Part shown: piece by piece, positions 20,797 to 49,858 of the stretch
How positions within the stretch are numbered: position 1 is the stretch's first letter
Layout of the letters: the number at the start of each line of letters is the position of its first letter
DNA from: an uncultured Verrucomicrobiales bacterium
GTDB lineage: Bacteria; Verrucomicrobiota; Verrucomicrobiia; JADLBR01
DNA length: 64,000 nucleotides
Direction: 5' to 3'
Assembly: GCA_964651705.1 (NCBI GenBank)
Contig: CAZYWZ010000023.1
Coordinates: forward strand, 4,412 to 68,411
Made by a program: the position numbers and the translations under genes
The notes under the pieces: model-generated
What the model saw: only the letters and a program-made list of their open reading frames with translations
Databases searched by the model: none
What the model was told of the DNA's origin: nothing

Positions 20797-22281
20797 ATGC
20801 GCCCCACAGTCACCTTCCTTTGTCTGGTCCTGGCGGGTAGCGACACCATGCATGCCGCCCCCGGCGCAACGCGTCCCAACATCCTTTTCCTGTTCGCCGA
20901 CGACCAGCGTTTCGACACGATGGGTTGCGCCGGGCACCCCATCGTGCGCACCCCGACGATCGACCGGCTGGCGAGGGAAGGCGTGCGTTTCCAGAACGCC
21001 TTCGTCACGACATCGGTCTGCTGGGTCAGCCGCGCCGTTGTGCTCACCGGGCAGTGGGCGCGTTCCCACGCGCAACGGGACGCCATACCGACGGTCACCC
21101 AGACCGCCATCCAGACCATGTTCCCCGTCGAATTGCGCAAGGCCGGATACCGGACCGGACATTTTGGCAAATGGCACTTCAAGGGGCCGCCGGGCTTTAG
21201 GCCCGAAGAGCACTACGAAGAATTCGAGCACATCGGCCGCAACCCGTACTTCAAGACGCTGCCCGATGGCACGCGGCGACACGAGACCGACCTGATCTGC
21301 GACCGCGGCATCACGTTCATACGCGCACAGCCAAAAGAAAGGCCATTCTGCCTCAATCTCTGGCTCAACGCCGCCCACGCCGAGGACGGCGACCGCCGCC
21401 CAGGCATCGGGCACTACCCGTGGCCGCAATCGGCCGACGGGATGTATGACGGCGTGCCCATCCCCGCGCCGCGCCTCGGCGATCCGGCCATCTATGAGGC
21501 GCACCCTCAATTCCTCAAGGACTCCATCAACCGCCAGCGCTTCTTCTGGGGTTATGACACCCCGGAGAAGTACGCCACGAACCTCCGCGCCTACTACCGC
21601 ATGATCAGCGGCATCGACACCGCCATCGCCCGGGTGCTGGCCGCGCTTCAAGATGCAGGCCTCGCCGGAAATACCATCGTCGTCTACTCCGCCGATAACG
21701 GCTACTATCTGGGGGACCGGGGCTTCCAGGGGAAGTGGTCTCACTTCGAGGAATCCCTGCGCGTGCCCCTCGTGGTTTATGATCCGCGCCTGCCCAAGGA
21801 AAAGCGCGGGCGCGCCCTCGATCCCATGGCGTTAAACGTGGATCTCCCGGCCACGTTCCTTGACTGGGCCGGGGTACCGAGACCCCAAGCCTACGAGGGT
21901 CGCAGCCTCGTCCCCCTCATCGAGGGCCAGCCCGCCCCAGACTGGCGCACCGAATTCTTCTGCGAGCACCTCGATCTCGCGCCAACGCTCACCTGGGAAG
22001 GGATCCGCGGCCAGCGCTATGTCTACGCCCGCTACTTCGACCAGCGGCCCCCCTTCGAATTTCTCCACGACCTGAAATCCGATCCCGACGAGCTGAAAAA
22101 CCTCGCCCCCTATCCCGCCCACGCCGCCGAGCTGGCGGCGATGCGCGCCCTGTGCGATCGCGAGATGAACGCGCGCGGCGGCCCCCTCCTTCCCATGGAC
22201 CAACGCGGCGCCAGCAAACCCGCCCGTGGCAAGGGCAAAGCCAAGGCGAAAATCGACCTCGCGGACCCGAAAACCCCCTGA
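20797..22281 (+). CDS. Sulfatase-family protein with a non-canonical active-site motif (C-W-V-S-R) and a Lys-rich C-terminal tail
   Basis: NILFLFADDQRFD. TTSVCWVSRAVVLTG (Pro at +2 replaced by Val). Tail KPARGKGKAKAKIDLADPKTP. Confidence 0.75.
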   Translation: MRPTVTFLCLVLAGSDTMHAAPGATRPNILFLFADDQRFDTMGCAGHPIVRTPTIDRLAREGVRFQNAFVTTSVCWVSRAVVLTGQWARSHAQRDAIPTVTQTAIQTMFPVELRKAGYRTGHFGKWHFKGPPGFRPEEHYEEFEHIGRNPYFKTLPDGTRRHETDLICDRGITFIRAQPKERPFCLNLWLNAAHAEDGDRRPGIGHYPWPQSADGMYDGVPIPAPRLGDPAIYEAHPQFLKDSINRQRFFWGYDTPEKYATNLRAYYRMISGIDTAIARVLAALQDAGLAGNTIVVYSADNGYYLGDRGFQGKWSHFEESLRVPLVVYDPRLPKEKRGRALDPMALNVDLPATFLDWAGVPRPQAYEGRSLVPLIEGQPAPDWRTEFFCEHLDLAPTLTWEGIRGQRYVYARYFDQRPPFEFLHDLKSDPDELKNLAPYPAHAAELAAMRALCDREMNARGGPLLPMDQRGASKPARGKGKAKAKIDLADPKTP

Positions 22282-22303
22282 TGTCGCATCAACCCGCCCG
22301 ACC

Positions 22304-23659
22304 ATGAGAAACTTTTTCGCGACCGCGCTGACCCTTTCGTCCTTCGGCATCTTCGCCCAATCTTTCGCCGAGCCGTCGCGCCCCAACATCGTCCTCTTCA
22401 TGGCCGATGACTTTGGCTACGAGTGCGTCACCGCCAACGGGGGCCAGTCCTATCAGACGCCCCACCTCGACCGCCTCGCCACCGGCGGCGTGCGTTTCGA
22501 GTCCTGCCACGTGCTCCCGCTCTGCACCCCGACGCGCGTCCAGCTCATGACCGGGCGATTCAACGTCCGCAACTACCTCAACTTCGGCACGCTCCCGAGA
22601 ACGGAGAGGACCTTCGCCAACCTCCTCGCGGACGCCGGTTATGCCACGGCCATCTGCGGCAAGTGGCAACTTGGAAAGGAATCCGACGCGCCGCAGCACT
22701 TCGGTTTCGGGGAAGCCCTTCTCTGGCAGCACACGCGCCGCCCGCCACGCTATGCCAACCCCGGCATCGAGCACAACGGCACCGAAAAGGATTTTAACGG
22801 CGGCGAGTACGGGCCGAAGCTGATCAGCGATTTCGCGCTCGATTTTATCGGGCGGCACCGGGACCGCCCCTTCTTCCTCTATTACCCGATGATCCTCACC
22901 CACGACCCATTCCAGCCCACCCCCGACAGCCCGGATTGGGACCCCAACGCCATCGGGGAAACCGCGAATAGGGATGTGAGGCATTTCGCCGACATGACCG
23001 CCTACATGGACAAGATGATCGGTCGCCTCGACGCCCGGCTCGGCGAACTCGGCATCCGCGACAACACCCTGCTGATGTTCATCGGCGACAACGGCACGCA
23101 CGGGAGCATCACGACCCGCTTCAACGGCAACGAATACCGAGGCGGCAAGGGCACCACCACCAGGCGCGGCACGCACGTCCCCTTCATCGCGAGCTGGCCC
23201 GCCATCATCCGGCAAGGCCGCGTGAACCGCGACCTCATCAGCGCCGCCGATTTCTTGCCCACGATCTGCGCCGCCGCCGGCGTCCCCGTGCCTCCCGGCA
23301 TCGATGGCGTCAGCTTCCTGCCGCAGCTCCGCGGCGACAGGGGCGCACCTCGGGAGTGGATCTACTGCTGGTATTCGCCGCGCCAGAAGGCCGACATGAC
23401 GGTGCGCGAGTTCGCATTCGACCATGAACACAAGCTGTATCGCGACGGTCGGTTCTTTGACCTCAGGGCGGATCCGTTCGAGGAGACTCCCCTGCAAACC
23501 GCCGCACTCAAGGGCGCCGCAGCCTCCGCGGCCGCCAGGCTGCAAGGCGTCCTCGCCCAGTTCAAGGACGCCCGCCCCCCCGAACTCGACCGGCAGTTCG
23601 AGCAATCCCTGGCAGATGAGCCCGCGCCCAAGAAAGAGAAACGGAATAGGAAGAAATAG
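22304..23659 (+). CDS. Sulfatase (Cys-type) with a Lys-rich C-terminal tail
   Basis: Signal peptide MRNFFATALTLSSFGIFAQS. NIVLFMADDFG. Motif LPLCTPTRVQLMTG. Tail PAPKKEKRNRKK. The track ORF starts at 22226; the Met at 22304 precedes the signal peptide. Confidence 0.85.
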   Translation: MRNFFATALTLSSFGIFAQSFAEPSRPNIVLFMADDFGYECVTANGGQSYQTPHLDRLATGGVRFESCHVLPLCTPTRVQLMTGRFNVRNYLNFGTLPRTERTFANLLADAGYATAICGKWQLGKESDAPQHFGFGEALLWQHTRRPPRYANPGIEHNGTEKDFNGGEYGPKLISDFALDFIGRHRDRPFFLYYPMILTHDPFQPTPDSPDWDPNAIGETANRDVRHFADMTAYMDKMIGRLDARLGELGIRDNTLLMFIGDNGTHGSITTRFNGNEYRGGKGTTTRRGTHVPFIASWPAIIRQGRVNRDLISAADFLPTICAAAGVPVPPGIDGVSFLPQLRGDRGAPREWIYCWYSPRQKADMTVREFAFDHEHKLYRDGRFFDLRADPFEETPLQTAALKGAAASAAARLQGVLAQFKDARPPELDRQFEQSLADEPAPKKEKRNRKK

Positions 23660-23679
23660 TCGCCCAACCGAGCACCCCC

Positions 23680-25200: not shown

Positions 25201-25215
25201 CGCCCCCGCTCGTAG

Positions 25216-25233
25216 TGCCGCGTTCACGCGGCA
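25216..25233. repeat. 18-bp perfect palindrome TGCCGCGTTCACGCGGCA (copy 1, 16 nt after the sulfatase stop)
   Basis: Arms tgccgcgt / acgcggca are exact reverse complements. An identical 18-mer recurs at 25600-25617. Confidence 0.6.
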
Positions 25234-25349
25234 GCCCGCGCGCCACCGGAGACGCCTGAAGGGCCTGTCGGTCAATTCCAGACCGCGCGGGAGTGCCGTG
25301 AGCCGGTATACCATCGCGACGCCATCGTGTGCTCCGATTCCGTCGGGCG

Positions 25350-25525: not shown

Positions 25526-25599
25526 CCTCCGCTCCATCGTGATCGTCGAATAAATCGACACGCCATGAAGGCGTCACCACGAACCTCCCCCACTCGCTG

Positions 25600-25617
25600 T
25601 GCCGCGTTCACGCGGCA
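25600..25617. repeat. 18-bp perfect palindrome TGCCGCGTTCACGCGGCA (copy 2, upstream of the next sulfatase)
   Basis: Identical to 25216-25233. The two copies bracket the 175-nt repeat element. Confidence 0.6.
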
Positions 25618-28620: not shown

Positions 28621-30132
28621 ATGAAGAATCCCGCTCGCTCCACCCGCCTCACCATGAATCCACTAGTCATCCTCTGCACCGCCTTCGCCATTTCTGCCGG
28701 CCATCCCTCCTTGGCCCAAACTAAGCCCCATATCATATTCGTCATGGCCGACGACATGGGCTGGGGACAGACCGGTTATCGAAACCACCCCGTCCTCAAG
28801 ACGCCAAACCTCGACAAGATGGCGGCCAGCGGACTGCGCTTCGAGCGCTTCTACGCCGGCGCGCCCGTGTGCTCGCCCACCCGCGCGAGCGTGCTCACCG
28901 GCCGCGCCAATGACCGCGCCGGGGTCTTGAGCCACGGCTATGCGCTCCGCCGCCAGGAAAAGACCATCGCGCAGGCGCTCCGGGGCGCCGGCTACGTCAC
29001 CGGCCACTTTGGCAAATGGCACCTCGATGGACTCAAAGGCCCCGGCGTGCCCATCCTCCCCAACGACGAATACCATCCCGGGCGATTCGGCTTCGACGAG
29101 TGGGTCTCCGTCTCCAATTTCTACGATCTCGACCCGCTCATGAGCCGCGGGGGCAAGATCGAACCGTTCCACGGCGATTCCTCCGAGATCGCCGTCGCCG
29201 AGGCGGTGAACTTTTTAAAGCGACATCTCTCCTCGGGAAAGCCGATGTTCGCGGTCGTCTGGTACGGCACCCCCCACAGTCCTTTCAAGGCCCTGCCCTC
29301 GGACAAGGCGGCCTTCGCCCACCTTGACGAGGACTCCGCCAATCACTACGGCGAGCTCGTCGCGATGGACCGCAGCATCGGCACCCTGCGGGCCGCGCTC
29401 CGCGACCTCGCCATCGCGGATAACACCCTGCTGGTATTCTGCAGTGATAATGGGGGTCTGCCAAAGATCACCCCCGAGACCGTCGGCGGCCTCCGCGGCA
29501 ACAAAGGTTCCGCATTCGAGGGCGGCCTCCGCGTCCCGGGCATCATCGAGTGGCCCGCGGCCATCAAACCGCGCGTCACCCATTATCCCGCCTGCACCAT
29601 GGACCTCTTCCCCACAGTCGCCGATATCCTCGGCCTGCCCGCCGATACCATGATCCAGCCCGTCGACGGCATCAGCCTGAAGCCACTCTTCGCCAGCGAA
29701 TTGGCGCCCCGGGAAAAGCCCATCCCGTTCCGCTTCGGTTCCAAAGCCGCGCTCGTCGACAACCGCCACAAGCTGGTGACCGAAAACCTCAAAGGCGGCA
29801 GCTTCCAGCTTTATGACCTCGCGGACGACCCCGCCGAGACACGCGACCTCGCCGCCGCGCAGCCAGGGCGTTTTGAGGAAATGAAGAAGGCGCTCCTCGC
29901 CTGGAACGAGAGCGTGGAGGCCAGCTTCTCGGGCAAAGATTACCCGGAGGGCACGCTGAACACCGCCGACCCAGAACCCCAATTCTGGTACGAGTCACCC
30001 GCCTATGCCCCCTACCTGCCGCAGTGGAAAGAGAGATGGGAGTTCAAGGGCTACATCGAGGCGCGGGGCAAGGCGCCCAAGGGCGAAAAGAAAAAGACAG
30101 CCCCAAAAGGCAAGCCCGGCGCCGGCCAGTGA
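28621..30132 (+). CDS. Sulfatase (Cys-type) with a Lys-rich C-terminal tail
   Basis: Signal peptide MKNPARSTRLTMNPLVILCTAFAISA. HIIFVMADDMGWG. Motif APVCSPTRASVLTG. Tail GKAPKGEKKKTAPKGKPGAGQ. Confidence 0.85.
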   Translation: MKNPARSTRLTMNPLVILCTAFAISAGHPSLAQTKPHIIFVMADDMGWGQTGYRNHPVLKTPNLDKMAASGLRFERFYAGAPVCSPTRASVLTGRANDRAGVLSHGYALRRQEKTIAQALRGAGYVTGHFGKWHLDGLKGPGVPILPNDEYHPGRFGFDEWVSVSNFYDLDPLMSRGGKIEPFHGDSSEIAVAEAVNFLKRHLSSGKPMFAVVWYGTPHSPFKALPSDKAAFAHLDEDSANHYGELVAMDRSIGTLRAALRDLAIADNTLLVFCSDNGGLPKITPETVGGLRGNKGSAFEGGLRVPGIIEWPAAIKPRVTHYPACTMDLFPTVADILGLPADTMIQPVDGISLKPLFASELAPREKPIPFRFGSKAALVDNRHKLVTENLKGGSFQLYDLADDPAETRDLAAAQPGRFEEMKKALLAWNESVEASFSGKDYPEGTLNTADPEPQFWYESPAYAPYLPQWKERWEFKGYIEARGKAPKGEKKKTAPKGKPGAGQ

Positions 30133-36975: not shown

Positions 36976-38426
36976 GCCGCCACCTCGCCATCGTATGCCT
37001 ATCCCTCCTGGCCTCCCACTGGACCTCGCCCGCGGCTCCCCCACCGAATATCGTCGTGGTCTTCATCGATGACATGGGATGGGGCGACTTCTCTTGCTTC
37101 GGGAACAGGGACGCCAGCACACCGAACGTCGACCGCCTCGCCTCCCAGGGCATTCGCTTCTCGCAGTTCTACGTGAACTCGCCGATCTGCTCCGCCTCGC
37201 GCTGCGCCCTGACGACCGGCCAGTACCCTCAGCGCTGGCGCATCACCTCCTTCCTGAACAACCGCGCCGACAACGAGCGCCGCGGCATGGCGCAGTGGCT
37301 GGATCCGGCCGCCCCGACGCTCGCCCGATTCCTGAAGGCGGCCGGCTACGCCACCGGCCATTTCGGCAAATGGCATCTCGGCGGCCAGCGCGATGTCGAT
37401 GACGCCCCGCCGATCACGGCCTACGGTTTCGACGCTTCCCTCACCAACTTCGAGGGCATGGGGCCAAAGCTCCTCCCTCTCACCCTTAAGCCCGGCGACA
37501 GAGAACCCGGCCGCATCTGGGCCGACGCCGAACGCCTCGGCAAACCCGTCGCCTGGATGCTCCGCTCGAAGGTCACCACAGGCTTCATCGACGCGGCGCT
37601 CGAATTCGTCGCCACCGCGCAGCGCGCCAAGAAGCCCTTCTACATCAATCTCTGGCCCGACGATGTCCATAGCCCATTCTGGCCGCCGGTGGACCGATGG
37701 GCGGACGACAAGCGAGGGTTGTATCTCGCCGTGCTCGAGGAGATGGATCGCCAGCTTGGCAAGCTCTTTGACCACATTCGCGACGACGCATCCCTGCGCG
37801 ACAACACCCTCATCCTCGTCTGCTCCGATAACGGCCCCGAACCCGGCGCCGGTAGCGCAGGAAGCCTCCGCGGCGCCAAGACCACCCTATTCGAGGGCGG
37901 CATCCGGTCCCCCCTCGTCGCCTGGGGCCCCGGGATCATAGCGCCCGAACGCGCCGGCGCGCACGATGCGACTTCCGTCTTTGCCGCGTTCGATCTCGTG
38001 CCTTCCCTGCTCACCATCGCGGGCGCAAAACGCCCCGCAGGCGTCGCCTTCGACGGCGAGGACATCTCCGCCACCCTGCTCGGCAAGGCCACCACCTCGC
38101 GACAGGCTCCCATCCACTGGCGCCGCCCCCCAGACCGAAAATCCTGGCGTCCGATGATTGCCGACACACTTCCCGACCTAGCCGTTCGCGACGGCTCATG
38201 GAAACTCCTCTGCGATTACGATGGCTCCCGCCCCCTGCTCTACGATCTCGATAAGGACCCCGAGGAATCCCTAAACTTGGCGGCGAGCCATCAGGACATC
38301 GTCGCCCGCCTCACCGCGGCCGCTTTAGCCTGGCACCAGTCGATGCCCGCGGACAATGGCCCCGCGCTCGGAGTGGGGCCCCCGCCACAACCCGGAAAGC
38401 AAAAGAAGAAAATGTCCAAGAAATGA
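36972..38426 (+). CDS. Sulfatase (Cys-type; motif variant C-S-A-S-R) with a Lys-rich C-terminal tail
   Basis: Signal peptide MSRHLAIVCLSLLASHWTSPA. NIVVVFIDDMGWGD. Motif SPICSASRCALTTG. Tail PQPGKQKKKMSKK. In frame with track ORF 36612..38426. Confidence 0.85.
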   Translation: MSRHLAIVCLSLLASHWTSPAAPPPNIVVVFIDDMGWGDFSCFGNRDASTPNVDRLASQGIRFSQFYVNSPICSASRCALTTGQYPQRWRITSFLNNRADNERRGMAQWLDPAAPTLARFLKAAGYATGHFGKWHLGGQRDVDDAPPITAYGFDASLTNFEGMGPKLLPLTLKPGDREPGRIWADAERLGKPVAWMLRSKVTTGFIDAALEFVATAQRAKKPFYINLWPDDVHSPFWPPVDRWADDKRGLYLAVLEEMDRQLGKLFDHIRDDASLRDNTLILVCSDNGPEPGAGSAGSLRGAKTTLFEGGIRSPLVAWGPGIIAPERAGAHDATSVFAAFDLVPSLLTIAGAKRPAGVAFDGEDISATLLGKATTSRQAPIHWRRPPDRKSWRPMIADTLPDLAVRDGSWKLLCDYDGSRPLLYDLDKDPEESLNLAASHQDIVARLTAAALAWHQSMPADNGPALGVGPPPQPGKQKKKMSKK

Positions 38427-40303
38427 GAAAGGGTATTGCCGCCTGCATCCTATTCGGCCCCCTCGCGCTGCCGGCGAGCGCCGCCGATCGTCCCAACATC
38501 CTTTGGCTGACCGCCGAGGACCTGAGCCCGCACCTCGGTTGCTATGGCGATGCGGACGCGACGACGCCCCGCCTCGATGCCTTCGCGCGCCAGTCCTTGA
38601 GATTCGACCGCGCCTTCGCCACGGCGCCCGTCTGTTCCCCTGCCCGGTCGTGCCTCATCACGGGCATGTTCGCCACCTCGCTCGGCACCCAGCGCCTCCG
38701 GTCGAAATTCCCGGTCCCCGGGGAGGTCATCCCCTTCCCGGCCCTCCTGCGACAGGCGGGGTGGTACTGCTCGAACAACGTCAAGACCGACTATAACGTG
38801 CGGGACGAGGCCGCCTTCATCCGCGCCGCATGGGACGACTGCTCCTCCAAGGCCCACTGGCGCCCCCGGCGCAAAGACCAACCCTTTTTCTCGGTGTTCA
38901 ATTTCATGACCACCCACCAGAGCCGCACCAGCGTGTGGCCACACGAGGAATTCGAACGGGAGATCCGCTCCAAACTCGACCCCGCCGAGCGCCATGACCC
39001 GGCCCGCGTCACACTCCCCCCCTATTACCCCGATACCGCCGAGGCACGCCGCGCCTGGGCCCGCTACCACGATTGCATCACCCTCATGGACAGGCAGGCC
39101 GGCGAGATCTTGGACCAGCTCGAGGCGGATGGCCTCGCCGAAGACACCATCGTATTCTTCTTCGGAGACCACGGCATGGGCATGCCACGCGGCAAGCGAT
39201 GCCTCCACGATTCCGGCATGCGCGTGCCACTCCTCGTGCGCATCCCAAAGCAATGGGCGCATCTCGCGCCATCGCCGCCCGGCTCCACCACGGATCGCCT
39301 CGTGAGCTTTGTCGACTTCGCGCCCACCGTCCTGAGCCTTTTCGGGATCCCTGCCCCGGCACATCTCCAGGGAAGTGCCTTCCTCGGCACGCATGCCGCC
39401 GCGCCGCGCGAGTTCATCCATGGCGCCCGCGACCGCGTTGACGAGGCCTTCGACGTCTCCCGGAGCGTCCGCGACGCACGATGGCTCTACATCCGCAACT
39501 TCATGCCACACCTCCCCTGGATGCAGCCGGAATCTTTCTCGGATGGCTCCACGTTCCGGAGGGAACTCAAGCGCCTCGCCGCGGATGATGCGCTTCCACC
39601 CGCCGCCCGGCCCTATGCCACCGCGCCGCGGCCACTCGAGGAACTCTACGACACCGCGGCGGACCCCCACCAGATCCATAACCTCGCCTCCGATGCCGCG
39701 CACATCGATCGATGCGAGCGCATGCGCGCCGAACTCCGCCGCTGGCAACTCGAGACCCGCGATGCCGGCTTTTTCACCGAACCCGACCTCTGGTCCACCC
39801 TGAAGCCCGGCGAGACGCCTCGCGCCACCACTGCCGATCCCGCGCGCTACCCGCTGGAACGGCTCCTCGATGTCGCCGGCGAGGTCGGTCGCCAGGACGC
39901 CGCGCCAAAGCAGCGCGGATGGCTGCACGATCCCGATCCCTCCGTCCGCTACTGGGCCGCCGTCGGACTCCACGCCAATGCCTCTCCCAAAGAGGCAGAC
40001 CGAGCCGCCCTCCGCCAAACCCTCGCCGATGCCTCGCCCGCCGCGCGCATCGAGGCCGCCGCCGCACTGGCACGCCATGGCGACGCCGCGCCCGCCATGC
40101 CGGTCCTCGCAGCCGCCCTCCACCACGAAACCCGCGAGGTCGTGCTCCACGCCGCCCGCGCCCTCGAACTCCTCGGGCCCATCGCCAAACCCCTCCATCC
40201 GGAAATGCGCGACGCGCTCGCCATCGCCAGCGAGGCCGAAAAGACCGGTGACGATATCGCCATGTTCGTCCGATTCAGCCTGGAGGCCGCACTGAATCCA
40301 TGA
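38423..40303 (+). CDS. Sulfatase (Cys-type) fused to a C-terminal HEAT-repeat domain
   Basis: Signal peptide. NILWLTAEDLSPHLG. Motif APVCSPARSCLITG. C-terminal DPDPSVRYWAAVGLHA...SPAARIEAAAALARHGD...ETREVVLHAARALELLG (HEAT / PBS-lyase-like repeats). Confidence 0.85.
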   Translation: MRKGIAACILFGPLALPASAADRPNILWLTAEDLSPHLGCYGDADATTPRLDAFARQSLRFDRAFATAPVCSPARSCLITGMFATSLGTQRLRSKFPVPGEVIPFPALLRQAGWYCSNNVKTDYNVRDEAAFIRAAWDDCSSKAHWRPRRKDQPFFSVFNFMTTHQSRTSVWPHEEFEREIRSKLDPAERHDPARVTLPPYYPDTAEARRAWARYHDCITLMDRQAGEILDQLEADGLAEDTIVFFFGDHGMGMPRGKRCLHDSGMRVPLLVRIPKQWAHLAPSPPGSTTDRLVSFVDFAPTVLSLFGIPAPAHLQGSAFLGTHAAAPREFIHGARDRVDEAFDVSRSVRDARWLYIRNFMPHLPWMQPESFSDGSTFRRELKRLAADDALPPAARPYATAPRPLEELYDTAADPHQIHNLASDAAHIDRCERMRAELRRWQLETRDAGFFTEPDLWSTLKPGETPRATTADPARYPLERLLDVAGEVGRQDAAPKQRGWLHDPDPSVRYWAAVGLHANASPKEADRAALRQTLADASPAARIEAAAALARHGDAAPAMPVLAAALHHETREVVLHAARALELLGPIAKPLHPEMRDALAIASEAEKTGDDIAMFVRFSLEAALNP

Positions 40304-42195
40304 GCCTTGATCGCCCCATGAACCTCACCTCGCATGCCAACCACCGGATCCGCGCGGGTGCGCGGCATCTCATCCTCCCACTGCTGCTGGCGTCCCGGAT
40401 CGCGTCGGCGGACGAACGTCCCAATATCCTCTGGATCACCAGCGAGGACAACAGCCCCTACCTTGGATGCTATGGCGATCCGCTCGCGCAGACGCCGAAC
40501 CTCGACCGCCTCGCCCGCGAGGGCCTCCGCTATCGCAACGCATTCGCCAACGCGCCCGTCTGCTCCAGCGCGCGCACCACCCTCATCACCGGCATGTACG
40601 CCTGTTCCCTCGGCGCCCACAACCACCGCAGCAAGGTCGCCATCCCCGATGGATTTCCGCTCTACCCCCAGGTCTTGCGCGCGTCCGGCTACTACTGCTC
40701 GAATAATTCCAAGACCGACTACAACCTTTCCGACAGGCGCGACGTCTGGGACGAGAGCAGCAAAAAGGCCCACTACAAGAATCGCGCGCCGGGACAGCCG
40801 TTTTTCGCCGTATTCAACTTCACCACCAGCCACGAGAGCCAGGTGGCGCCGAAGCCGGGCAAGACCGCGTTTCGCGTCCCGCCGGAAAAAGTCCCGCTCC
40901 CGCCGTATCACCCCGACACGCCGGAGATCCGGCGCGATTGGGCCAACTACTATGACCAGATGACCCTGTTGGATGCCCAGGTCGGCGAAGTCTTGGACGA
41001 GCTCGCCGGCGCCGGTCTCGACGACGACACCATCGTATTCTACTACGGCGATCACGGCGGCGCCCTGCCCCGCGGAAAACGCAACATCCACGACTCGGGC
41101 ACCCGCGTCCCCCTGATCATCCGCATCCCCAAGAAGTGGTCCCACCTCTCCCCCGCCGCTCCAGGCGAATGGGCCGATGACCTCGTCAGTTTCGTCGACT
41201 TCCCCGCGACCGTCCTCAGCCTCTGCGGGGTGCCCGTCCCGCCGAATTACGAGGGCCGCGCCTTCCTCGGAGCCGCCAAGGCCCCTCCCCGGACACGCGT
41301 CTTCCTGTTCCGGGGCCGCATGGACGAGCGCTACGATATGGTCAGGGCCATACGGGACAAAGACGCCCGATACGTGCGCAACTATTCGCCCCATCGGCCC
41401 TGGGGCCAGCACTACAGCTATCCCTTCGAGGTGCTCCCCAGCATGCGGTCCTGGTCGGAGACCTTCACCGCGGGGAAATGCAACGAGACGCAGGCGCGAT
41501 ATTGGCGACCCAAGCCCGGAGAGGAATTCTATCAGATCGCCGCGGACCCGTTCGAGATCCGCAATCTGGCCCATGACCCCGGATGCGCCGCCCGGATCGA
41601 GACACTCCGCGCCGCCCTGCGCGACGAGATCCTCAAGACGCGCGACGTCGGATTCATCCCCGAGGGAATGTTCCCGCGACTGGCCGGCGACAAGACCATC
41701 TACGACTATGCCCGGGGCGACGCCTATCCCATCCGCAAGATCCTCGACCTCGCCGACCGCGCCAGCGACAGCGATCCCAGGCACCTCAAGGACTTCATCG
41801 CCGCCCTCGATGACCCCCATCCGGTCGTCCGCTATTGGGCCGCGACCGGATGCCTCGTGCTCAAGGCCGATGCCGCGCCCGCGAAAGACAAACTCCGGGC
41901 CGGGCTCTCCGACGAGTGGGCCGACGTCCGCGTCGCCGCCGCCGAATCTATCGCCTACCTCGGCGAACCAAAGTCCGCCCTCGATGCCATCGCCGCGGTG
42001 CTTCGCGAGGGCAACCTCCACGAGGCGCTCGCCGCCCAGAATGCCCTCGACTTCATGTGGCAGGCAGGCCACGTGACCCTCGCCGACGCGCGGGCCCTCG
42101 TCAGGGACATGGACCTCCCCGAACCCGGGAACCGCATCCCGCGATACCTCCTGAATACCTCAGAATCCACGAAGCCATGCGACCCATTCCCCTAA
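40300..42195 (+). CDS. Sulfatase-family protein (motif variant C-S-S-A-R) fused to a C-terminal HEAT-repeat domain; tandem paralog of the previous gene
   Basis: NILWITSEDNSPYLG. Motif APVCSSARTTLITG (Ser replaces Pro at +2). C-terminal DPHPVVRYWAATGCLV...DVRVAAAESIAYLGEPKSALDAIAAVL HEAT-like repeats. Confidence 0.8.
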   Translation: MSLDRPMNLTSHANHRIRAGARHLILPLLLASRIASADERPNILWITSEDNSPYLGCYGDPLAQTPNLDRLAREGLRYRNAFANAPVCSSARTTLITGMYACSLGAHNHRSKVAIPDGFPLYPQVLRASGYYCSNNSKTDYNLSDRRDVWDESSKKAHYKNRAPGQPFFAVFNFTTSHESQVAPKPGKTAFRVPPEKVPLPPYHPDTPEIRRDWANYYDQMTLLDAQVGEVLDELAGAGLDDDTIVFYYGDHGGALPRGKRNIHDSGTRVPLIIRIPKKWSHLSPAAPGEWADDLVSFVDFPATVLSLCGVPVPPNYEGRAFLGAAKAPPRTRVFLFRGRMDERYDMVRAIRDKDARYVRNYSPHRPWGQHYSYPFEVLPSMRSWSETFTAGKCNETQARYWRPKPGEEFYQIAADPFEIRNLAHDPGCAARIETLRAALRDEILKTRDVGFIPEGMFPRLAGDKTIYDYARGDAYPIRKILDLADRASDSDPRHLKDFIAALDDPHPVVRYWAATGCLVLKADAAPAKDKLRAGLSDEWADVRVAAAESIAYLGEPKSALDAIAAVLREGNLHEALAAQNALDFMWQAGHVTLADARALVRDMDLPEPGNRIPRYLLNTSESTKPCDPFP

Positions 42196-43541
42196 CCGCC
42201 TGTCTGCTGGCGGTCGCCGTCACCCACGTCGTCGCCGATGCGCCAAAACCCAACGTCATCGTCATACTGTCCGATGACCAGGGCTCCGTAGACCTCGGCT
42301 GCTATGGCGCAAAGGACCTGCACACCCCGAACACCGACGCCCTCGCGGCCCGCGGCATCCGCTTCACCCAATTCTATTCCGCGGCGCCCGTGTGCTCCCC
42401 CTCGCGCGCCGGCCTGCTCACCGGACGCTGGCCCGTCCGCGCCGGCGTGCCCAACAATTGCGCCTCGCAGCAGGGGGGCAAAGGCGCGCTGCCTCCCGAA
42501 GAGATCACGATGGCGGAGGTCTTCAAGGCCGCAGGATACGCCACCGCCCACATCGGGAAGTGGCACGTCGGCTATACGCCCGAGACCTCGCCGCTATCCC
42601 AGGGTTTCGATCAGAGCTTTGGCCACATGGGTGGTTGCATCGACAACTATTCGCACTTCTTCTACTGGAGCGGCCCCAATATCCACGACCTCTGGCGCAA
42701 CGGCGCGGAGGTCTTCCGCGATGGGGCCTACTTCCCCGATCTCATGGTCGCGGAGGCCGCACGCTTCATCGCCGAGAATCGGCACCGTCCCTTCTTTATC
42801 TACTACGCGATAAACACACCCCACTATCCCTATCAGGGCGACAAGAAATGGCTCGATCACTTCAAGCATCTCCCGCACCCGCGCAACCTCTACGCCGCCT
42901 TCCTTGCCGCGCAGGATGAGCGCCTCGGCGCCCTCTTCGCGAAGGTCGAAGCACTCGGGCTGGCGGAGCGCACCATCATCGTCTTCCAGAGCGACAACGG
43001 GCATTCCACGGAGGAACGCGCGCATTTCGGCGGCGGGAGCGCGGGCCCCTACCGCGGCGCGAAGTTCAGCCTCTTCGAGGGTGGGATACGCCTCCCCGCC
43101 ATTATCTCTTGGCCCGGCACCCTGCCCCAAAACGAGGTCCGCGATCACGTGGCGCACGCCTGCGACTGGTTGCCCACCCTCGCGGCACTCGCCGGGGTCC
43201 AGCCGCCCGACACGCGCCTCGACGGCCGCAACCTCGTCCCCATCCTCCGCGACCCCAAGGCGCCCGGCCCGCACACCGCGCACGCGCTCCACTGGCAAGT
43301 AGGAGACGGCCCAAATGCCGACTGGGCCGTGCGCGACGGCGAATGGAAACTGCTCGGCAATGCCCGCGATACCGGCGGCGGCATCGCCTGGGGACCCGGC
43401 GCAACCAAGAAGGGCGGCGACCGCATACCCCTCTTCCTCGCCAATATCACGGACGACCCCGCCGAAACAACCAATCTCGCCGACCGCCACCCCGACATCG
43501 TCGCCCGCCTCAGGCAATTGCACGAAGACCACCTCCGCTGA
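42177..43541 (+). CDS. Sulfatase (Cys-type)
   Basis: Signal peptide MRPIPLTACLLAVAVTHVVADA. NVIVILSDDQGSVD. Motif APVCSPSRAGLLTG. In frame with track ORF 41835..43541. Start overlaps the previous gene. Confidence 0.85.
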   Translation: MRPIPLTACLLAVAVTHVVADAPKPNVIVILSDDQGSVDLGCYGAKDLHTPNTDALAARGIRFTQFYSAAPVCSPSRAGLLTGRWPVRAGVPNNCASQQGGKGALPPEEITMAEVFKAAGYATAHIGKWHVGYTPETSPLSQGFDQSFGHMGGCIDNYSHFFYWSGPNIHDLWRNGAEVFRDGAYFPDLMVAEAARFIAENRHRPFFIYYAINTPHYPYQGDKKWLDHFKHLPHPRNLYAAFLAAQDERLGALFAKVEALGLAERTIIVFQSDNGHSTEERAHFGGGSAGPYRGAKFSLFEGGIRLPAIISWPGTLPQNEVRDHVAHACDWLPTLAALAGVQPPDTRLDGRNLVPILRDPKAPGPHTAHALHWQVGDGPNADWAVRDGEWKLLGNARDTGGGIAWGPGATKKGGDRIPLFLANITDDPAETTNLADRHPDIVARLRQLHEDHLR

Positions 43542-43542
43542 T

Positions 43543-44126: not shown

Positions 44127-44143
44127 TCGGCTCAGGTCCGGCC

Positions 44144-46867
44144 CTACTTGAGCCGCCGCTTCCGGAGAATCGCACCGACGCCCAGCAGCAGCCATGCCCA
44201 TGCCGCCGGCTCGGGCACCGGGATGAGCCAGCCACCGCCGGCCAAGGCGTGGATCTCGTCGTTCAACTCGGGGTTGAGCGAAGGGGCGTAGTAGATGTTG
44301 AATGCCGAGGTGACCTGTTGTGTGTCGGCATTGAACCGGAGCACGTAGAGCGCCGTGCCATCATTGCCAGTATTGCCGTCTTCGATCGTCACGGTGCCGC
44401 CTGGCGCGATCTCCAGTTCCCCGATCGCAAAGTTGTTGCTGTAGCCGCTCCAGTCGAGGCCGAGATCGGCGCCTGCAAATTCGAAAGTGTGGCTGCCGAT
44501 CCCGAAACCGAGCGCCGAGCCCGCGAGGTCGAACGTGAACGCGTTGGTGCTGGCGTTGAGCAAATTGCCCTGGATGACGAATTCATCGCCGGGCCCGCCG
44601 TTCAGCGCGCCGCTCGCGCCAACCTGGAGGGTGGTGAAGAAGTTGGTGCCCGAGTCGCTGATGTATTTGCCATTGTTCACGAAGACATCCAGGAACGTGA
44701 TCTGGCCACCGGTGTTCTTGAAGACCCCGCCGAGTTCGTTGGTCACGACGCTGGCGACGCTTCCCACGTCCCCGGCCGCGTCGAGTTGCGCCCCCGGCCG
44801 CACCAGCACGACGCCGCCGGTGCCCGTGACCGCCCCGCCCTCCAACCGCATGACGCCGTTGGACGCCGACAACACGCCGTAGTTGGCGATAGCGGCGGAA
44901 ACCGTCCCCCAACCGCTGACGGTGGCGTTGGTGTTGATGACCAGGCCGTCGCTGAAGCCGTGGGCTCCGCCGAGAAGGTTCATCGTGGCTCCCTGTGCAC
45001 CATCGCCGATGGTGAAGGCGAAGGTATTGGCGAGGGCGCTGCCACGGGCGCTCAACGTGCCGGCGTTGAAACTCATCTGCCCGCCAGCGTTGGTCAAGAT
45101 GAGTTGATCGGTCGCAACGCTGCCGCCGTTGAGGCTCAGCAAGCCGTGGCGCACTTCCAGCGAGCCGCTGCCGGCCGGCCCAACTGCTTGCAGATTGCCG
45201 CCGATGACGGCCACCAAGCTGCCCGTGGCCGCGGAAACCCTTCCGACCACAACGCCCGAGGCAACAACGGAGCCGCCGTCAGCGATACTCAATTGGTTGT
45301 CCGGACCCTCATGACCCACATAGAGGTTGTTGCGGTTAGTCCAGAGCGAATCGGCGCCGATGACAAGCACCGCGTTGCTCCTCGCCAGGCCGCCATAGCC
45401 CACGAACCCGTTGTCATCCGCCACGGCGCCGCCGTTGCTGATGATCAACCCGTTGCACGAACCTTGATTGCCCACCCGTAACCATGAGCCGTTATCCCAG
45501 AGCGAATCGGCGCCGGTGACAAGCACCACGTTGTTGCTCGCGTAATGTGTGTCGCCCAGGTAGCAACCGTTGTTCGCCACCGTGCCGCCGCCGCTGATGG
45601 TCAGCCGGTTGCCCGAACCGTAGTCGCCCACGCTTAGATACGACCTGTTGGTCCAGAGCGAATTGGCGCCGGTCACCATCACCACGTTGTTGCTCGCGCT
45701 CTTCTCATCGCCCACACAGCCGTAAGAGTCCGCCACCGTGCCGCCGTCGCTGATCGTCAACCGGTTGCCCGACCCGTAGTCGCCCACGGTTAAAGAGGTG
45801 TTGGTCCAGAGCGAGCCGGCGCCGGTGACCAGCACCGCGTTGTCGCTCGCGTTGCTGCCGCAGCCCACATAGCCGTTCTCGCTCTTCACCATGCCGCCGT
45901 TGGTGATGGTCAATCGATTGCCCGAACCGAAGCAGCCCACATGGAGGTCATTGCGGTTGGTCCAGAGCGAGCTGGCGCCGGTGACCAGTACCGCGTTGTT
46001 GCTGGCGCGGCTGTCTTGTCCTACATAGGCGTTCCCGCTGGCCACCGTGGCGCCGTCGCTGATGGTCAGCCGGTTGCACGACCCCGAATCGCCTACGCTA
46101 AGGTTGGTCCGGTTGTTCCAGAGCGAATCGGCGCCGGTGACAAGCACCGCGTTGCTGCTCGCCAGGCCGCCATAGCCCACGAACCCGCTGTCATTTGCCA
46201 CGGCGCCGCCGTTGCTGATGGTCAACCGGTTGCACGAACCCTGATTGCCCACCCGCAACCATGAGCCGTTATGCCAGAGCGAATCGGCGCCGGCGACCAG
46301 CACCACGTTGTTGCTCGCGTAATGTGTGTCGCCCAGGTAGCAGCCGTTGTTCACCACCGTGCCGCCGTCGCTGATGGTCAACCGGTTGTCCGAACCGTAG
46401 TCGCCCACGCTTAAATAGAACCTGTTGGTCCAGAGCGAATTGGCGCCGCTGACCAGCACCACGTTGTTGCTCGCGCTCTTCCCGTCGCCCACACCGCCGT
46501 AAGAGTCCGCCACCGTGCCGCCGTCGCTGATGGTCAGGCCGTTGAAGGAGCCTGAATTGCCAATGGTCAGATCGTTGCTGTTGTTCCAGATAGACCCACT
46601 GCCTGTGATCAAGGCGGAATTGTGGTCGGCGCCGGCGAGATCGCCCACAATGCCCGCTGTCGAATTCAGGTCGGCGTTGTTTGTGACGATCAGGGCATTC
46701 AGCGGTCCATTGCTGCCGACCAGGTACGTTCCGGCATAGTTGACGGAAATGCCGTTGATGACGTTCGTTTGGCGGGTCTCGGCGCTGGCCGGGCCGCAAA
46801 ATACAACCCCCAAGCAGGCCCATGTCGCGGCAACCCTCCACAGTCGAATCCTTGGAAGTCGCCTCAT
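44144..46867 (-). CDS. PEP-CTERM-anchored surface protein built of about 45-aa autotransporter-associated beta-strand-like repeats
   Basis: Signal peptide MRRLPRIRLWRVAATWACLGVVFCGPASA. At least 10 repeats of the form SLWTNR..L.VGD.GS.NRLTISDGGTVA. C-terminus LIPVPEPAAWAWLLLGVGAILRKRRLK (VPEP + TM + basic = PEP-CTERM exosortase sorting signal). Confidence 0.75.
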   Translation of the reverse strand: MRRLPRIRLWRVAATWACLGVVFCGPASAETRQTNVINGISVNYAGTYLVGSNGPLNALIVTNNADLNSTAGIVGDLAGADHNSALITGSGSIWNNSNDLTIGNSGSFNGLTISDGGTVADSYGGVGDGKSASNNVVLVSGANSLWTNRFYLSVGDYGSDNRLTISDGGTVVNNGCYLGDTHYASNNVVLVAGADSLWHNGSWLRVGNQGSCNRLTISNGGAVANDSGFVGYGGLASSNAVLVTGADSLWNNRTNLSVGDSGSCNRLTISDGATVASGNAYVGQDSRASNNAVLVTGASSLWTNRNDLHVGCFGSGNRLTITNGGMVKSENGYVGCGSNASDNAVLVTGAGSLWTNTSLTVGDYGSGNRLTISDGGTVADSYGCVGDEKSASNNVVMVTGANSLWTNRSYLSVGDYGSGNRLTISGGGTVANNGCYLGDTHYASNNVVLVTGADSLWDNGSWLRVGNQGSCNGLIISNGGAVADDNGFVGYGGLARSNAVLVIGADSLWTNRNNLYVGHEGPDNQLSIADGGSVVASGVVVGRVSAATGSLVAVIGGNLQAVGPAGSGSLEVRHGLLSLNGGSVATDQLILTNAGGQMSFNAGTLSARGSALANTFAFTIGDGAQGATMNLLGGAHGFSDGLVINTNATVSGWGTVSAAIANYGVLSASNGVMRLEGGAVTGTGGVVLVRPGAQLDAAGDVGSVASVVTNELGGVFKNTGGQITFLDVFVNNGKYISDSGTNFFTTLQVGASGALNGGPGDEFVIQGNLLNASTNAFTFDLAGSALGFGIGSHTFEFAGADLGLDWSGYSNNFAIGELEIAPGGTVTIEDGNTGNDGTALYVLRFNADTQQVTSAFNIYYAPSLNPELNDEIHALAGGGWLIPVPEPAAWAWLLLGVGAILRKRRLK

Positions 46868-46900
46868 AAGCCTTCCGCAATCCTCATGGCCGGGGGCACC

Positions 46901-48271
46901 TCAATCCGACCATCGGGCGATCGTCTTTCGCCCGGTGACCGGCCACCACGCCGAGATCTTGCCCGCCAGTCGCTCGACCACCTCCGGATTCCCGGCGGCA
47001 ACGTTCCTCTCCTCGCCCGGATCGGCGAGCAGGTCGAAGAGCTGTGGGCGCCTCTCGGTCCGGGGGTGCGAGCTGGCGTAACGGCCCAGCGCGCCGTCAT
47101 AGGTCAAAAGGAGCTTCCATTTGCCCTCGATGGCCCAGCGGTACAACAGGGAATCCTCCGGCCTGTCGATGTCCGCGATGTCATGGGCGAACCCCTCGCC
47201 AAAAATCGTGTCCCGACCCAAGGGCACACCATCGCGGACCAATGGCAGGAGGTCCAGGCCGGGAAGGTTCCCGGAGATGGTGGCGCCGGCGGCACTCAGC
47301 ATCGTGGGCACCAGATCGATGCTGCTGACCGGTTCATCGCGCTTGCCGGTCCGGATTACGCCGGGCCAGCTCAACAGGATGGGCTGGCGCACGCCGCCCT
47401 CGTTGGGCGACTGCTTCGATTTCGGCGCGTAGCCCTGGCTGGCGGGATCCTGGATCCAGCCATTGTCGGCGATATAGGCATAGAGCGTGTTCGCGTTGAG
47501 CCCCTTCCCATCGAGGAAATCGATCAGTTGCCCGCATGTTTCATCGAACCACTCGCACATGGCGTAGTACTTCGCGACGTGGAGGGATTCGACCTTGTCC
47601 CGGTACTTTGCCAGCAACCGGTCGGGCGGATTGTGCGGCGTGTGCGGCAGGAAGGGCGCGTACCACAGAAAGAAAGGCTTCTTCTCCCCCATCGCATGCT
47701 CCACGAAATCGAAGACGGGCTGCATGCCCTCCCGCCCGATCTTGAGCCCGTCGTCCCCGTGTCGCCCGCCCTTCTCCGGAAACCCCCGGGTCATCCCGTG
47801 GGTGAATCCCCCGCGGCGATAGGACCCCTCCCACCACTTGCCGGATTGGTGCGAGAGATAACCGCGCTCCGCCAGCAGCTTCGGCAACGTCGGATGCCCG
47901 TCGATGTGGCTGATGAGCCGTTCCCGCAACTCGGCATACTTCGGCGAATCGGCGGGCGCGAGGGCGTGGGACGGGTCATTGCCCGAGATCCTGTGCTGAT
48001 GCGCAAACAGCCCGGTCGCCAGCGTGCTGAGCGCCGGCCGGCAAAGCGCCGTCGGCACATATCCCCGGGTGAATAGCGCGCTCCGCGCGGCCAATCGGTC
48101 CAGGTGCGGTGTCTGGATCACCGGGTGCCCCATGAACCCATAGTCCGTCCACGCCTGGTCGTCGGAAAGGATCAGGACGATGTTCGGCGTTCCGCGCGTT
48201 CCCGCGGATTCAGACAGCCCAACGGCCGCCAGCAGCGCACCTAACACCGCAATGGTCTGCTCAAATCTCAT
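46901..48271 (-). CDS. Sulfatase-family protein with a degenerate active-site motif (C-R-P-A-L; Arg at +4 lost)
   Basis: Signal peptide MRFEQTIAVLGALLAAVGLSESAG. NIVLILSDDQAWTDYG. PTALCRPALSTLATG. GKWWEGS. Confidence 0.75.
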   Translation of the reverse strand: MRFEQTIAVLGALLAAVGLSESAGTRGTPNIVLILSDDQAWTDYGFMGHPVIQTPHLDRLAARSALFTRGYVPTALCRPALSTLATGLFAHQHRISGNDPSHALAPADSPKYAELRERLISHIDGHPTLPKLLAERGYLSHQSGKWWEGSYRRGGFTHGMTRGFPEKGGRHGDDGLKIGREGMQPVFDFVEHAMGEKKPFFLWYAPFLPHTPHNPPDRLLAKYRDKVESLHVAKYYAMCEWFDETCGQLIDFLDGKGLNANTLYAYIADNGWIQDPASQGYAPKSKQSPNEGGVRQPILLSWPGVIRTGKRDEPVSSIDLVPTMLSAAGATISGNLPGLDLLPLVRDGVPLGRDTIFGEGFAHDIADIDRPEDSLLYRWAIEGKWKLLLTYDGALGRYASSHPRTERRPQLFDLLADPGEERNVAAGNPEVVERLAGKISAWWPVTGRKTIARWSD

Positions 48272-48280
48272 GATCGCCCC

Positions 48281-49858
48281 CTATTGTCTCTTGGCCTTCC
48301 CCTTCTTTCCGGGGCCTCCAGATCTGGCGGCCGGGGCCAGCGACTCGGGCGGATCCTGAGCCGGGACCTTTAGCTCGGCCCGCAGCCGGTCGAGTTCGGC
48401 GTGCAGCGCCTCCCTGGCTTCCGCGTGAGCCGGATCGTCATAGACATTCCTGAGTTCCTTCGGGTCCCCCTCACGATCGATGAGTGACCAGTAATTCATC
48501 TCGGGCTCATAGAAGTGGAAGAGCTTATACCGGTCGGTGACGACGCCGTAGTGCTTGCGCACGCTGTGGGGACCGGGAAATTCGTAGTAGTGGTAGTAGA
48601 AGCTCGTGCGCCAATCGGCCGGATTCTCGCCGCGCAGCAGTGGCACCAGGCTCCGGCCCTGCATATCGCCCGGGACCGCCTGCCCCGCGGCGTCGAGGAA
48701 TGTCTCCGGAAAATCGAGGACCGAGACCATGCTGGCGTTCCGGCCGCCCGGCTTCGTCACCCCGGGCCAGCGCGCCAGCAGGGGCGTCGTCAGCGACTCC
48801 TCGTAGATCCAGCGCTTGTCGAACCAGCCGTGCTCGCCCAGGTAGAATCCCTGATCGGATGAGTACATGACGAGCGTGTCCTTCGCCAAGCCCTCGGCAT
48901 CGAGGAAGTCCAGCAGCCGCCCCACCCCCTCGTCGACCGCGAGGATCGTGCCGAGGTAGTCGTGCATGTAGCGCTGGTAGCGCCAGCGGACCAGATCCTT
49001 GCCCGAGAGATTGGCGGCGAGAAACTTCTCGTTCCGCGGCCCGTAGTAGGCGTCCCAGGCCTTGCGCTGGGTCGCGTTCAGATACGGCGGCGCCGCCAGC
49101 TTCGCGTCCCTCTCGTTGAATGTCTTTTCCAGCGTCATGTCCTGCTCGCGCTCCGCCCTGCCGCGGCCCGCGTAGTCATCGAAGAGCGTGTCCGGTTCGG
49201 GGAACTCCCGATCCCCATTCCAGCCCAAGTGCCGGAGGGCCGGCGCCCACTCGCGGTGCGGCGCCTTGTGCTGGCACATGAGCATGAACGGTTTTGTCTC
49301 ATCGCGGGCCTTCAGCCACTCGATGGCGATATCCGTGATTATGTCGGTGGTGTATCCCTCGTGCGTCACCTTCTCCCCATCCCGGATCATCGGCGGGTTA
49401 TAATAAATGCCTTGGCCCGGGAGGATGTGCCAATGATCGAAGCCGACGGGATCGCTCTCGAGGTGCCACTTGCCGATGACCGCGGTCCGATAGCCCGCCG
49501 CCTGCAGCAGTTTGGGAAAGGTCTGCTGCGCCCCGTCGAACCGATTGCCATTCCGAAAGAAGCCGTTGATGTGGCTATATTTCCCCGTCTGGATGACGGC
49601 GCGGCTGGGCCCACAGATCGAGTTTGGCACGAGGCACCGCTCGAACAGCACGCCCTCTTTCGCCAGCCGGTCGATGTTCGGGGTCTGGACCAGCTTGAGC
49701 GGGTGAGCATAGGCGCTGATCGCCTGCGACGCGTGATCATCGGCAAAGATGAACAGGATATTCGGGGGCCTCGTCTCCCCCGCGGCCCGGGTGAATACGG
49801 CGGCGAGCAGGATCACTCCCAGCGCCGCGGCTTTCGCAAAGGTGGATGCAGCTCTCAT
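48281..49858 (-). CDS. Sulfatase (Cys-type) with a Lys-rich C-terminal tail
   Basis: Signal peptide [37 protein letters not shown]. Motif [14 protein letters not shown]. Tail [12 protein letters not shown]. The track ORF extends to 50026; start set at the Met preceding the signal peptide. Confidence 0.85.

Follow-up and report, generated by a model that had tools for sequence, protein, structure and literature searches.

Seven secreted-type sulfatases of an uncultured Verrucomicrobiales bacterium carry short lysine-rich tails at their C-termini, and comparison with orthologs indicates that these tails are genuine, selected appendices of particular orthologous groups, their presence or absence following the group. 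We analyzed a stretch of 64,000 nucleotides from this bacterium (contig CAZYWZ010000023.1, positions 4,412 to 68,411), hereafter called the window. Twenty window proteins match PF00884 in a Pfam scan, with E-values from 8.7e-36 to 8.4e-61, and most of them also match SGSH_C. A near-continuous array at 19216-43541 holds 16 of the 20. A preliminary description made from the DNA letters had reported lysine-rich tails on seven of 20 sulfatases, and the Pfam scan together with in-frame translation confirmed that count. From the sequences we infer that the tails bind polyanions electrostatically.

The tails are 13-24 residues long, reach the stop codon in frame and contain 4-8 lysines, with a net charge of +5 to +9 in translation. 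On the plus strand, the sulfatase of 494 amino acids (aa) at 20797-22281, assigned by both PF00884 and SGSH_C, ends in GASKPARGKGKAKAKIDLADPKTP (22207-22278). It is followed by the Pfam-assigned sulfatases of 451 aa at 22304-23659, ending in EPAPKKEKRNRKK (23618-23656), and 503 aa at 28621-30132, ending in RGKAPKGEKKKTAPKGKPGAGQ (30064-30129) and facing a convergent downstream neighbor. Pfam likewise assigns the 581-aa protein at 33787-35532, with tail GGKPKQAKGKKKAK (35488-35529), the 467-aa protein at 35572-36975, with tail PRGEKRQAKSKKKKDRKAKP (36913-36972), and the 484-aa protein at 36972-38426, with tail PQPGKQKKKMSKK (38385-38423). The stop codon of 35572-36975 overlaps the next start as ATGA, and that of 36972-38426 also overlaps the start of the next gene. 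The seventh tailed sulfatase, on the minus strand at 48281-49861, has 526 aa when read from the ATG at 49861, matches Pfam Sulfatase and, strongly, SGSH_C, and has its tail at 48284-48328.

These tails stand out sharply from the remainder of the proteins. Lysine makes up 3.95% of residues in the 20 window sulfatases, so the probability of at least five lysines in 20 residues is 9e-4. None of the 9,936 internal 20-residue windows of these proteins reaches five lysines. Six C-termini do so within their last 20 residues, and the seventh tail, that of 48281-49861, has four lysines and two arginines. In every tailed protein the densest lysine window is the C-terminus itself. Among the 14 non-sulfatase proteins of the window, a single one, topoisomerase I, has a basic tail.

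The genes in this work were called with a codon-likelihood caller. The models match independent public gene calls on contigs with identical genes (503, 581, 467, 484, 626, 631 and 454 aa), and this agreement excludes mis-called stops and frameshifts as the source of the tails. The concern that the tails might fall outside the real coding sequences was therefore not borne out.

In family terms, the tailed window proteins are ordinary S1 sulfatases (PF00884; SulfAtlas S1). The formylglycine motif C-x-P/A-x-R is present in 17 of the 20 window sulfatases, and two more have C-S-[AS]-[AS]-R. Six of the seven tailed proteins have an accepted form of the motif, which in 36972-38426 is C-S-A-S-R. The tailed protein at 20797-22281 has the atypical C-W-V-S-R, with no proline. 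The untailed protein at 46901-48271 (minus strand) is also atypical, with leucine replacing arginine in C-R-P-A-L; according to the SulfAtlas paper, Arg-to-Leu/Ile variants of this kind, which it mentions for Lentisphaerae and Planctomycetes, may be inactive. By heuristic and by eye, the N-termini of all seven tailed proteins show a basic n-region and a hydrophobic h-region directly before the conserved PN(I/L) start of the domain.

The preliminary description had also proposed that the tails follow an otherwise complete sulfatase fold, and this agrees with our alignments. Pfam Sulfatase and SGSH_C matches and alignments to PDB entries all stop short of the tails. For 35572-36975, the nearest PDB entries are human SGSH (4mhx) and an S1_8A sulfatase (9bb9). 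The aligned region stops at about residue 440 of 467, which places the tail beyond the fold. The nearest entries for 28621-30132 are carrageenan sulfatases of the S1_19/S1_16 type, and those for 33787-35532 are 7all and the AtsA-type arylsulfatase 1hdh. Pairwise identity among the 20 window sulfatases is 25-45%, with the tailed ones scattered among the rest. The seven tailed paralogs share 25-38% identity and belong to different subfamilies, which points to independent acquisition of the tails. A single tailed subfamily is ruled out by this low identity and by the differing nearest solved structures.

The tails are probably intrinsically disordered, as judged mainly from their composition, which is a stronger argument than the structural model. 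Structure prediction had been proposed as a check on disorder. In an AlphaFold2 model of 35572-36975, the predicted local distance difference test score (pLDDT) is indeed below 50 at residues 446-467. The model as a whole is mediocre (mean 67.9) and its low confidence is not specific to the tail, so it lends weak support to disorder.

Tail presence is a stable property of several orthologous groups. Among the 120 best relatives of 35572-36975 (72-92% identical), 102 have at least five lysines in the last 20 residues and 107 have a net charge of at least +4. These relatives include proteins named Verrucomicrobiota, Prosthecobacter, Opitutaceae, Thermoguttaceae and Pirellulaceae, and nearly all of them share a conserved ...TEMKALERMPR followed by a variable lysine-rich tail. 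In the group of 28621-30132 (120 orthologs, 68-81% identity), the tail comes after a conserved ...WKDRWEFKSYLERR; 67/120 have at least five lysines, and 100/120 carry a net charge of +4 or more over their last 20 residues. Of 80 metagenomic orthologs of 48281-49861 (62-78% identity), 38 have at least five lysines, including nearly all of the closest. The remaining three tailed sulfatases of the array for which single orthologs were compared give a similar picture. The closest 50%-identity cluster representative of 20797-22281 (P0362, Phycisphaerae, 52% identical) ends ...KRPAAKRKKKKARG, orthologs of 22304-23659 in loci L020 and L033 (66-70% identity) end ...QGKKKSKTPRPDAVE and ...PEKKKSKKSKKGR, and a 72%-identical ortholog of 36972-38426 in L010 ends ...APPQAGKNKKNK. 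For 33787-35532, at least five lysines are found at the end of 6/11 related sulfatases of the loci (mean identity 49%).

As a control, we examined 120 orthologs of the tail-less sulfatase 42177-43541 (70-95% identical, same taxa). None of the 120 has four or more lysines at the end, and none reaches a net charge of +4. The tail had been envisaged as a possible conserved appendix of one subfamily; it is instead stable in several unrelated orthologous groups and absent from others.

What is conserved within these groups is composition. Tails in the 35572-36975 group average about 20 residues (range 4-30) and consist of 34% K, 42% K+R, 10% D+E, 39% G/A/P/S/T and 2% hydrophobic residues. When right-aligned, they are 23% identical, compared with 19% for shuffled tails and about 70-80% for the enzyme bodies. 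Because charge is kept across orthologs while tail identity is close to that of shuffled sequence, selection acts on a polycationic composition of the disordered type and not on sequence. Lysine is specifically preferred over arginine, by about 4:1: K/(K+R) reaches 0.75-0.81 in basic sulfatase tails, compared with 0.42-0.49 for the enzyme bodies and 0.44 for the basic C-termini found on other proteins. Some orthologs of 35572-36975 have arginine-rich tails (for example P0077, P0093 and P0098).

The basic tail is kept in orthologs of 35572-36975 at 55-80% identity from genomes with a GC content of 0.38-0.69. Persistence over this range, together with the rarity of tails on non-sulfatases of the same loci, rules out a GC or compositional artefact. 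The genome had been described as exceeding 65% GC; the window averages about 0.65, with a range of 0.55-0.72.

The same comparisons brought up a separate observation. Within individual sulfatase orthologous groups, proteins from bins labeled Verrucomicrobiota and from bins labeled Planctomycetota share 70-80% identity (P0001-P0360; L005-L084), which is unusually high across phyla. This suggests horizontal exchange of sulfatase genes within the Planctomycetes-Verrucomicrobia-Chlamydiae (PVC) superphylum, or mis-binning.

Tails are strongly enriched on sulfatases. We collected 80 loci around orthologs of 35572-36975 from species-representative genomes of Verrucomicrobiota, Planctomycetota (including Phycisphaerae), Lentisphaerae and one Bryobacterales bin. 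The loci gave 846 called genes, of which 225 were identified as sulfatases by a profile built from the window's 20. Orthologs of the query 35572-36975 were left out of all enrichment tests. With the window excluded as well, at least five lysines in the last 20 residues were found in 32/126 neighboring sulfatases (25%) compared with 13/608 other proteins (2.1%; Fisher P = 1e-16). With the window kept, the difference held among proteins positive for a signal peptide by a crude heuristic (25/100 sulfatases vs 7/188 others, P = 1e-7). It also held among clusters formed at 45% identity or more, which reduce pseudo-replication (19/77 vs 9/560, P = 1e-12); for signal-peptide clusters the counts were 13/51 for sulfatases and 4/173 for others. 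These data argue against the suspicion that the tails are a quirk of composition shared by all proteins of the genome. The statement that canonical sulfatases do not carry such tails applies to the tail-less control group, but about a quarter of the sampled PVC sulfatase clusters are tailed.

The tail is not a response to the charge of the enzyme that bears it. Net body charge is equal in tailed and untailed sulfatases (P = 0.7-0.99), which rules out charge compensation for an acidic enzyme body. Tail presence showed no association with a lipoprotein signal or with the Cys or Ser type of the sulfatase. A Tat-like match gave a small excess (8/75 vs 3/138); it comes from a regular expression only and is not relied upon.

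Since tails are enriched on sulfatases, a link to sulfated glycans is favored, and we tentatively consider the sulfated glycan substrate the most likely ligand, with the tail as a tether, although our confidence in this assignment falls a little short of even. As we picture it, an appendix of about 13-25 residues, with 30-35% lysine and almost no hydrophobic residues, would hang off the last helix of the C-terminal subdomain. It would act through its charge and not through a sequence motif, and its binding to polyanions would be electrostatic and reversible. The ligand would be the enzyme's own substrate class, namely sulfated polysaccharides or glycoprotein glycans. By capturing the polymer, the tail would keep the enzyme within the matrix of its substrate and thereby increase the substrate concentration around it. 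Such a mode of action would resemble that of the basic hydrophilic domain of Sulf1/2 and of the lysine-rich C-terminal domain of HBHA.

Several observations weigh against this reading. The 48281-49861 group keeps the tail less strictly, in about half of its orthologs, and in the 20797-22281 group it is kept by the closest representative only, more distant relatives being mostly without it. The sampled loci are centered on PVC sulfatase clusters, and glycoside hydrolases and lyases are too few in the sample to be compared for tails. The Cardin-Weintraub pattern XBBXBX occurs in two of the seven window tails (DRKAKP and GKKGKA), and a search of all seven for XBBBXXBX found none. In the AlphaFold2 model of 35572-36975, low pLDDT also affects parts of the folded core. 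The tailed non-sulfatases are mostly exported proteins: Redoxin/AhpC-TSA, a beta-lactamase family protein, a ThuA-like protein and a 3-keto-disaccharide hydrolase. Tails on exported proteins with no obvious link to sulfated glycans agree with a general localization role at least as well as with a substrate tether.

Similar tails on other exported proteins thus keep envelope retention or sorting in contention as the main rival, and we regard this explanation as unlikely but worth serious consideration. The tail would bind lipopolysaccharide, anionic phospholipids, capsule or peptidoglycan-associated polymers, or it would be recognized by a machinery for export or anchoring. In either case, enzymes that have an ordinary type I signal peptide would be kept from diffusing away and would remain on the cell, inside it or in vesicles. 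The clearest case is an exported Redoxin/AhpC-TSA with an extreme polybasic tail (...RKRRKRKKTKKKK / ...RFERKRRKRKKTKKKK), which is no obvious actor on sulfated glycans and lies 0-3 kb upstream of a tailed sulfatase ortholog. It is kept in four syntenic Planctomycetaceae loci (L054 6212-6907, L076 6237-6929, L059 2158-2790 and L077 4862-5491), which we counted as one independent case. Among non-sulfatases, basic tails are about three times commoner on proteins with a signal peptide than on those without (7/188 vs 4/360). A preprint on Akkermansia reports a sulfatase with a signal peptide of the SPI type that is surface-anchored "by an unknown mechanism" (10.1101/2025.09.11.675649), so a device of this sort is being sought, and the hydrophilic domain of the Sulfs also mediates cell-surface localization (PMC3890690).

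A general retention tag does not, however, predict the observed sulfatase bias: in these loci, tail frequency on sulfatases is about 7-fold that on other proteins with a signal peptide. The 120 signal-peptide comparators are a heterogeneous set, in which a Pfam census found 168 families, none of them a major family of carbohydrate-active enzymes. The tails also lack a conserved motif and a hydrophobic segment and vary in length from 4 to 30 residues, unlike known C-terminal sorting signals. They are not associated with lipoprotein signals, and no candidate machinery gene was identified. Substrate tethering and envelope retention are not mutually exclusive.

A bolder form of the localization idea is that the lysine-rich tail is a new, composition-coded localization signal of the PVC superphylum. 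Through it, enzymes exported by Sec and processed by signal peptidase I would be attached to the cell surface, vesicles or a polyanionic scaffold in the periplasm. We think this rather unlikely. Sulfatases would be its main cargo, together with a few redox and hydrolase proteins, a corollary that we consider similarly improbable. If true, such a signal would explain how enzymes stay cell-associated in bacteria without the Bacteroidota-type surface machinery, and it would be a candidate for the mechanism of Akkermansia sulfatase anchoring.

It is improbable that the tail is a generic biophysical helper with no specific ligand, serving solubility, the pacing of Sec export, folding or formylglycine maturation, or protection of the C-terminus. 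Conservation of composition alone, with length and sequence free, is typical of entropic or solubility tails, and all tailed sulfatases are exported Cys-type enzymes that need modification and folding. A helper of this kind does not account for a charge that is always positive, nor for a 4:1 preference for lysine over arginine against GC pressure. Comparable sulfatases of the same genomes are never tailed (0/120), and their bodies carry equal charge.

A neutral origin is more improbable still. Triplet slippage or stop-codon drift could add AAG/AAA runs that are tolerated without a function, and the repetitive make-up of the tails, with (GK)n, (KA)n and Kn runs of highly variable length, is consistent with slippage as the mutational source. 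Tail presence or absence nevertheless tracks the orthologous group over 55-92% identity, two phyla and a GC range of 0.38-0.69. The family bias is strong, and internal windows of the sulfatases are free of lysine-rich runs.

Finally, we give almost no weight to a nucleotide-level feature, in which an A-rich 3' end would serve the next operon gene by providing a ribosome-binding site or an unstructured region for initiation, or through translational coupling, with the lysines as a by-product. For six of the seven window tails, the next start codon does follow within 0-40 nt, with an ATGA overlap in two cases, and the AAA share of lysine codons is somewhat raised in the window tails (0.47 vs 0.30 in the bodies, n = 38). 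We rejected this explanation because tail frequency among the 225 sulfatases is independent of gene arrangement (close co-directional downstream gene 39%, far 30%, convergent 31%; chi-square P = 0.49), the AAA excess disappears in a larger sample (tails vs bodies: high-GC loci, 0.37 vs 0.37; low-GC loci, 0.50 vs 0.47), and arginine-rich, CGN-coded tail variants exist. Moreover, the tail ending at 30132 has no co-directional gene after it, and tail-less yet tightly coupled genes occur in the same operon (20793/20797, 33790/33787 and 40303/40300).

The tail of 35572-36975 contains a further nucleotide feature. A dnaX-type slippery heptamer, A_AAA_AAG, lies in the correct phase at 36942-36948, and no stop codon interrupts the -1 frame between this point and the ATG (36972) of the following sulfatase, so that a -1 slip would yield a fusion of two sulfatases. 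The heptamer is probably a by-product of the lysine codons.

PVC bacteria encode tens to hundreds of sulfatases and play a major part in breaking down recalcitrant sulfated polysaccharides, for example fucoidan, carrageenan and mucin glycans. The tail bears on how these sulfatases reach their polymers and on where in the cell they are positioned. Found on about a quarter of the sampled sulfatase clusters, this short appendix is easily recognized, conserved within orthologous groups, and can be deleted or transplanted. It would predict which enzymes bind polymers or the envelope. For enzyme production and crystallography, tails can be expected to affect heparin-like binding, solubility and construct design. 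If the tail proved to be a retention signal, it would represent a new localization principle for the PVC superphylum. Lysine-rich tails are not very surprising in principle, yet they are widespread, cleanly defined and directly testable.

Other features of the window touch on the sulfatases. The Gly/Lys-rich internal insert that had been noted in the sulfatase at 5284-6837 (plus strand) is real: a Gly run and a lysine-rich segment occupy nt 5680-5841, residues ~133-186 (HGGAGGGGGGGAGKAKRKTQGKAP...KPEKKLIPP, GGAGGGGGGGAGKAKRKTQGKAP). This insert may be related in kind to the tails, though it is internal and not C-terminal. Within the array at 19216-43541, many stop and start codons overlap (ATGA at 33787, 36972, 38423 and 40300) or nearly abut (a 3-nt gap at 20793/20797), which suggests translational coupling over a very long operon. 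Three sulfatases are fusions. In the protein at 16352-18991 the sulfatase is fused to a GHL15 (hypothetical glycosyl hydrolase) domain, and in the adjacent paralogs 38423-40303 and 40300-42195, 45% identical, to C-terminal HEAT repeats.

Two further loci stand out by base composition. The GH120-insertion/beta-helix protein of 14476-16311 coincides with a dip in GC (0.547 vs ~0.65), which could mark a recent horizontal acquisition. At 54497-59491 (minus strand), a 1,600-residue PSCyt2/PSD1 (DUF1549/DUF1553) protein is adjoined by its usual DUF1501 partner (53007-54500, minus strand). Its N-terminal ~1,000 residues are Ala/Lys/Glu/Gln-rich, repetitive and coiled-coil-like (for example ...AAKRKAADDAKAALAQAQQ...KKAADEALANAKKQLAAA...), and this region accounts for a local GC of 0.72 and an AT skew of -0.48.

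How do the tails compare with known systems? The literature we searched, with incomplete coverage, gave no description of such tails on bacterial sulfatases; it included the SulfAtlas paper and studies of Planctomycetota fucoidan degradation and of Akkermansia and Kiritimatiellales sulfatases. Like the PEP-CTERM/exosortase signal and the C-terminal domain of the type IX secretion system, the tails sit at the C-terminus of exported proteins, and PEP-CTERM itself ends in a short basic cluster. Such sorting signals, however, combine a signature motif with a hydrophobic helix or consist of a folded beta-sandwich domain, whereas the tails are 2% hydrophobic, motif-less and variable in length. A Pfam scan of the tailed sulfatases found no C-terminal sorting domain. 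The window does encode a protein at 44144-46867 that had been described as carrying a PEP-CTERM signal. The match is real but borderline, at 20.8 bits against a cut-off of 20.7. The same protein contains 7.7 tandem copies of a 156-nt (52-aa) repeat at 45335-46536 (minus strand).

Lysine-rich C-terminal tails of bacterial topoisomerase I bind DNA. The window's TopA (1163-3838) ends in a 45-residue K/R/A/P-rich tail, AAAKAPEPATKRKAATKPRARKKAAPKAGATKGRKAARVSAKRAA, at 1163-1300 (minus strand). Like the sulfatase tails it is a presumably disordered polycation, but TopA is a cytoplasmic protein and its ligand is DNA. All that the TopA tail shows is that such tails serve this lineage in different settings.

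The Cardin-Weintraub consensus (XBBXBX / XBBBXXBX) describes basic clusters that bind sulfated glycans electrostatically. In contrast to this consensus, the conserved property of the sulfatase tails is charge density in a probably disordered tail and not a spacing pattern.

A bacterial parallel is mycobacterial HBHA, whose C-terminal lysine-rich domain binds heparan sulfate and sulfated glycoconjugates (PMC3293801) and whose lysines are methylated (PMC8467707). Like the sulfatase tails, this domain, and those of Hlp/LBP, are bacterial, C-terminal, Lys/Ala/Pro-rich and largely unstructured, and window tails such as GKAPKGEKKKTAPKGKPGAGQ are similar in composition. Unlike the sulfatases, HBHA is an adhesin and not an enzyme, and it has defined penta- and hepta-peptide repeats. 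The sulfatase tails have no conserved repeat or register, in keeping with their near-shuffled identity.

Among enzymes, a parallel is the hydrophilic domain of the human extracellular endosulfatases Sulf1/Sulf2, which is rich in basic residues, 12 of them in an uninterrupted run, and binds heparan sulfate (PMC3890690). It is required for heparan sulfate endosulfatase activity and for cell-surface localization, and is dispensable for small aryl substrates (PMC3890690). Like that domain, the tail is a strongly basic, non-catalytic segment on a formylglycine sulfatase. The tails show no homology to it, and a large insert of the Sulf type, placed between the catalytic and C-terminal regions, is absent, as tails of 13-24 residues on proteins of 451-581 residues leave no room for one. 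The Sulf domain also has acidic stretches and is specific to animal Sulfs, whereas the tails occupy the extreme C-terminus in several unrelated bacterial subfamilies. By analogy, the tails may be likened to known polyanion-binding basic segments while standing outside all of these families. If they do tether the enzymes to their substrates, bacteria would have arrived by convergence at a counterpart of the human Sulf hydrophilic domain.

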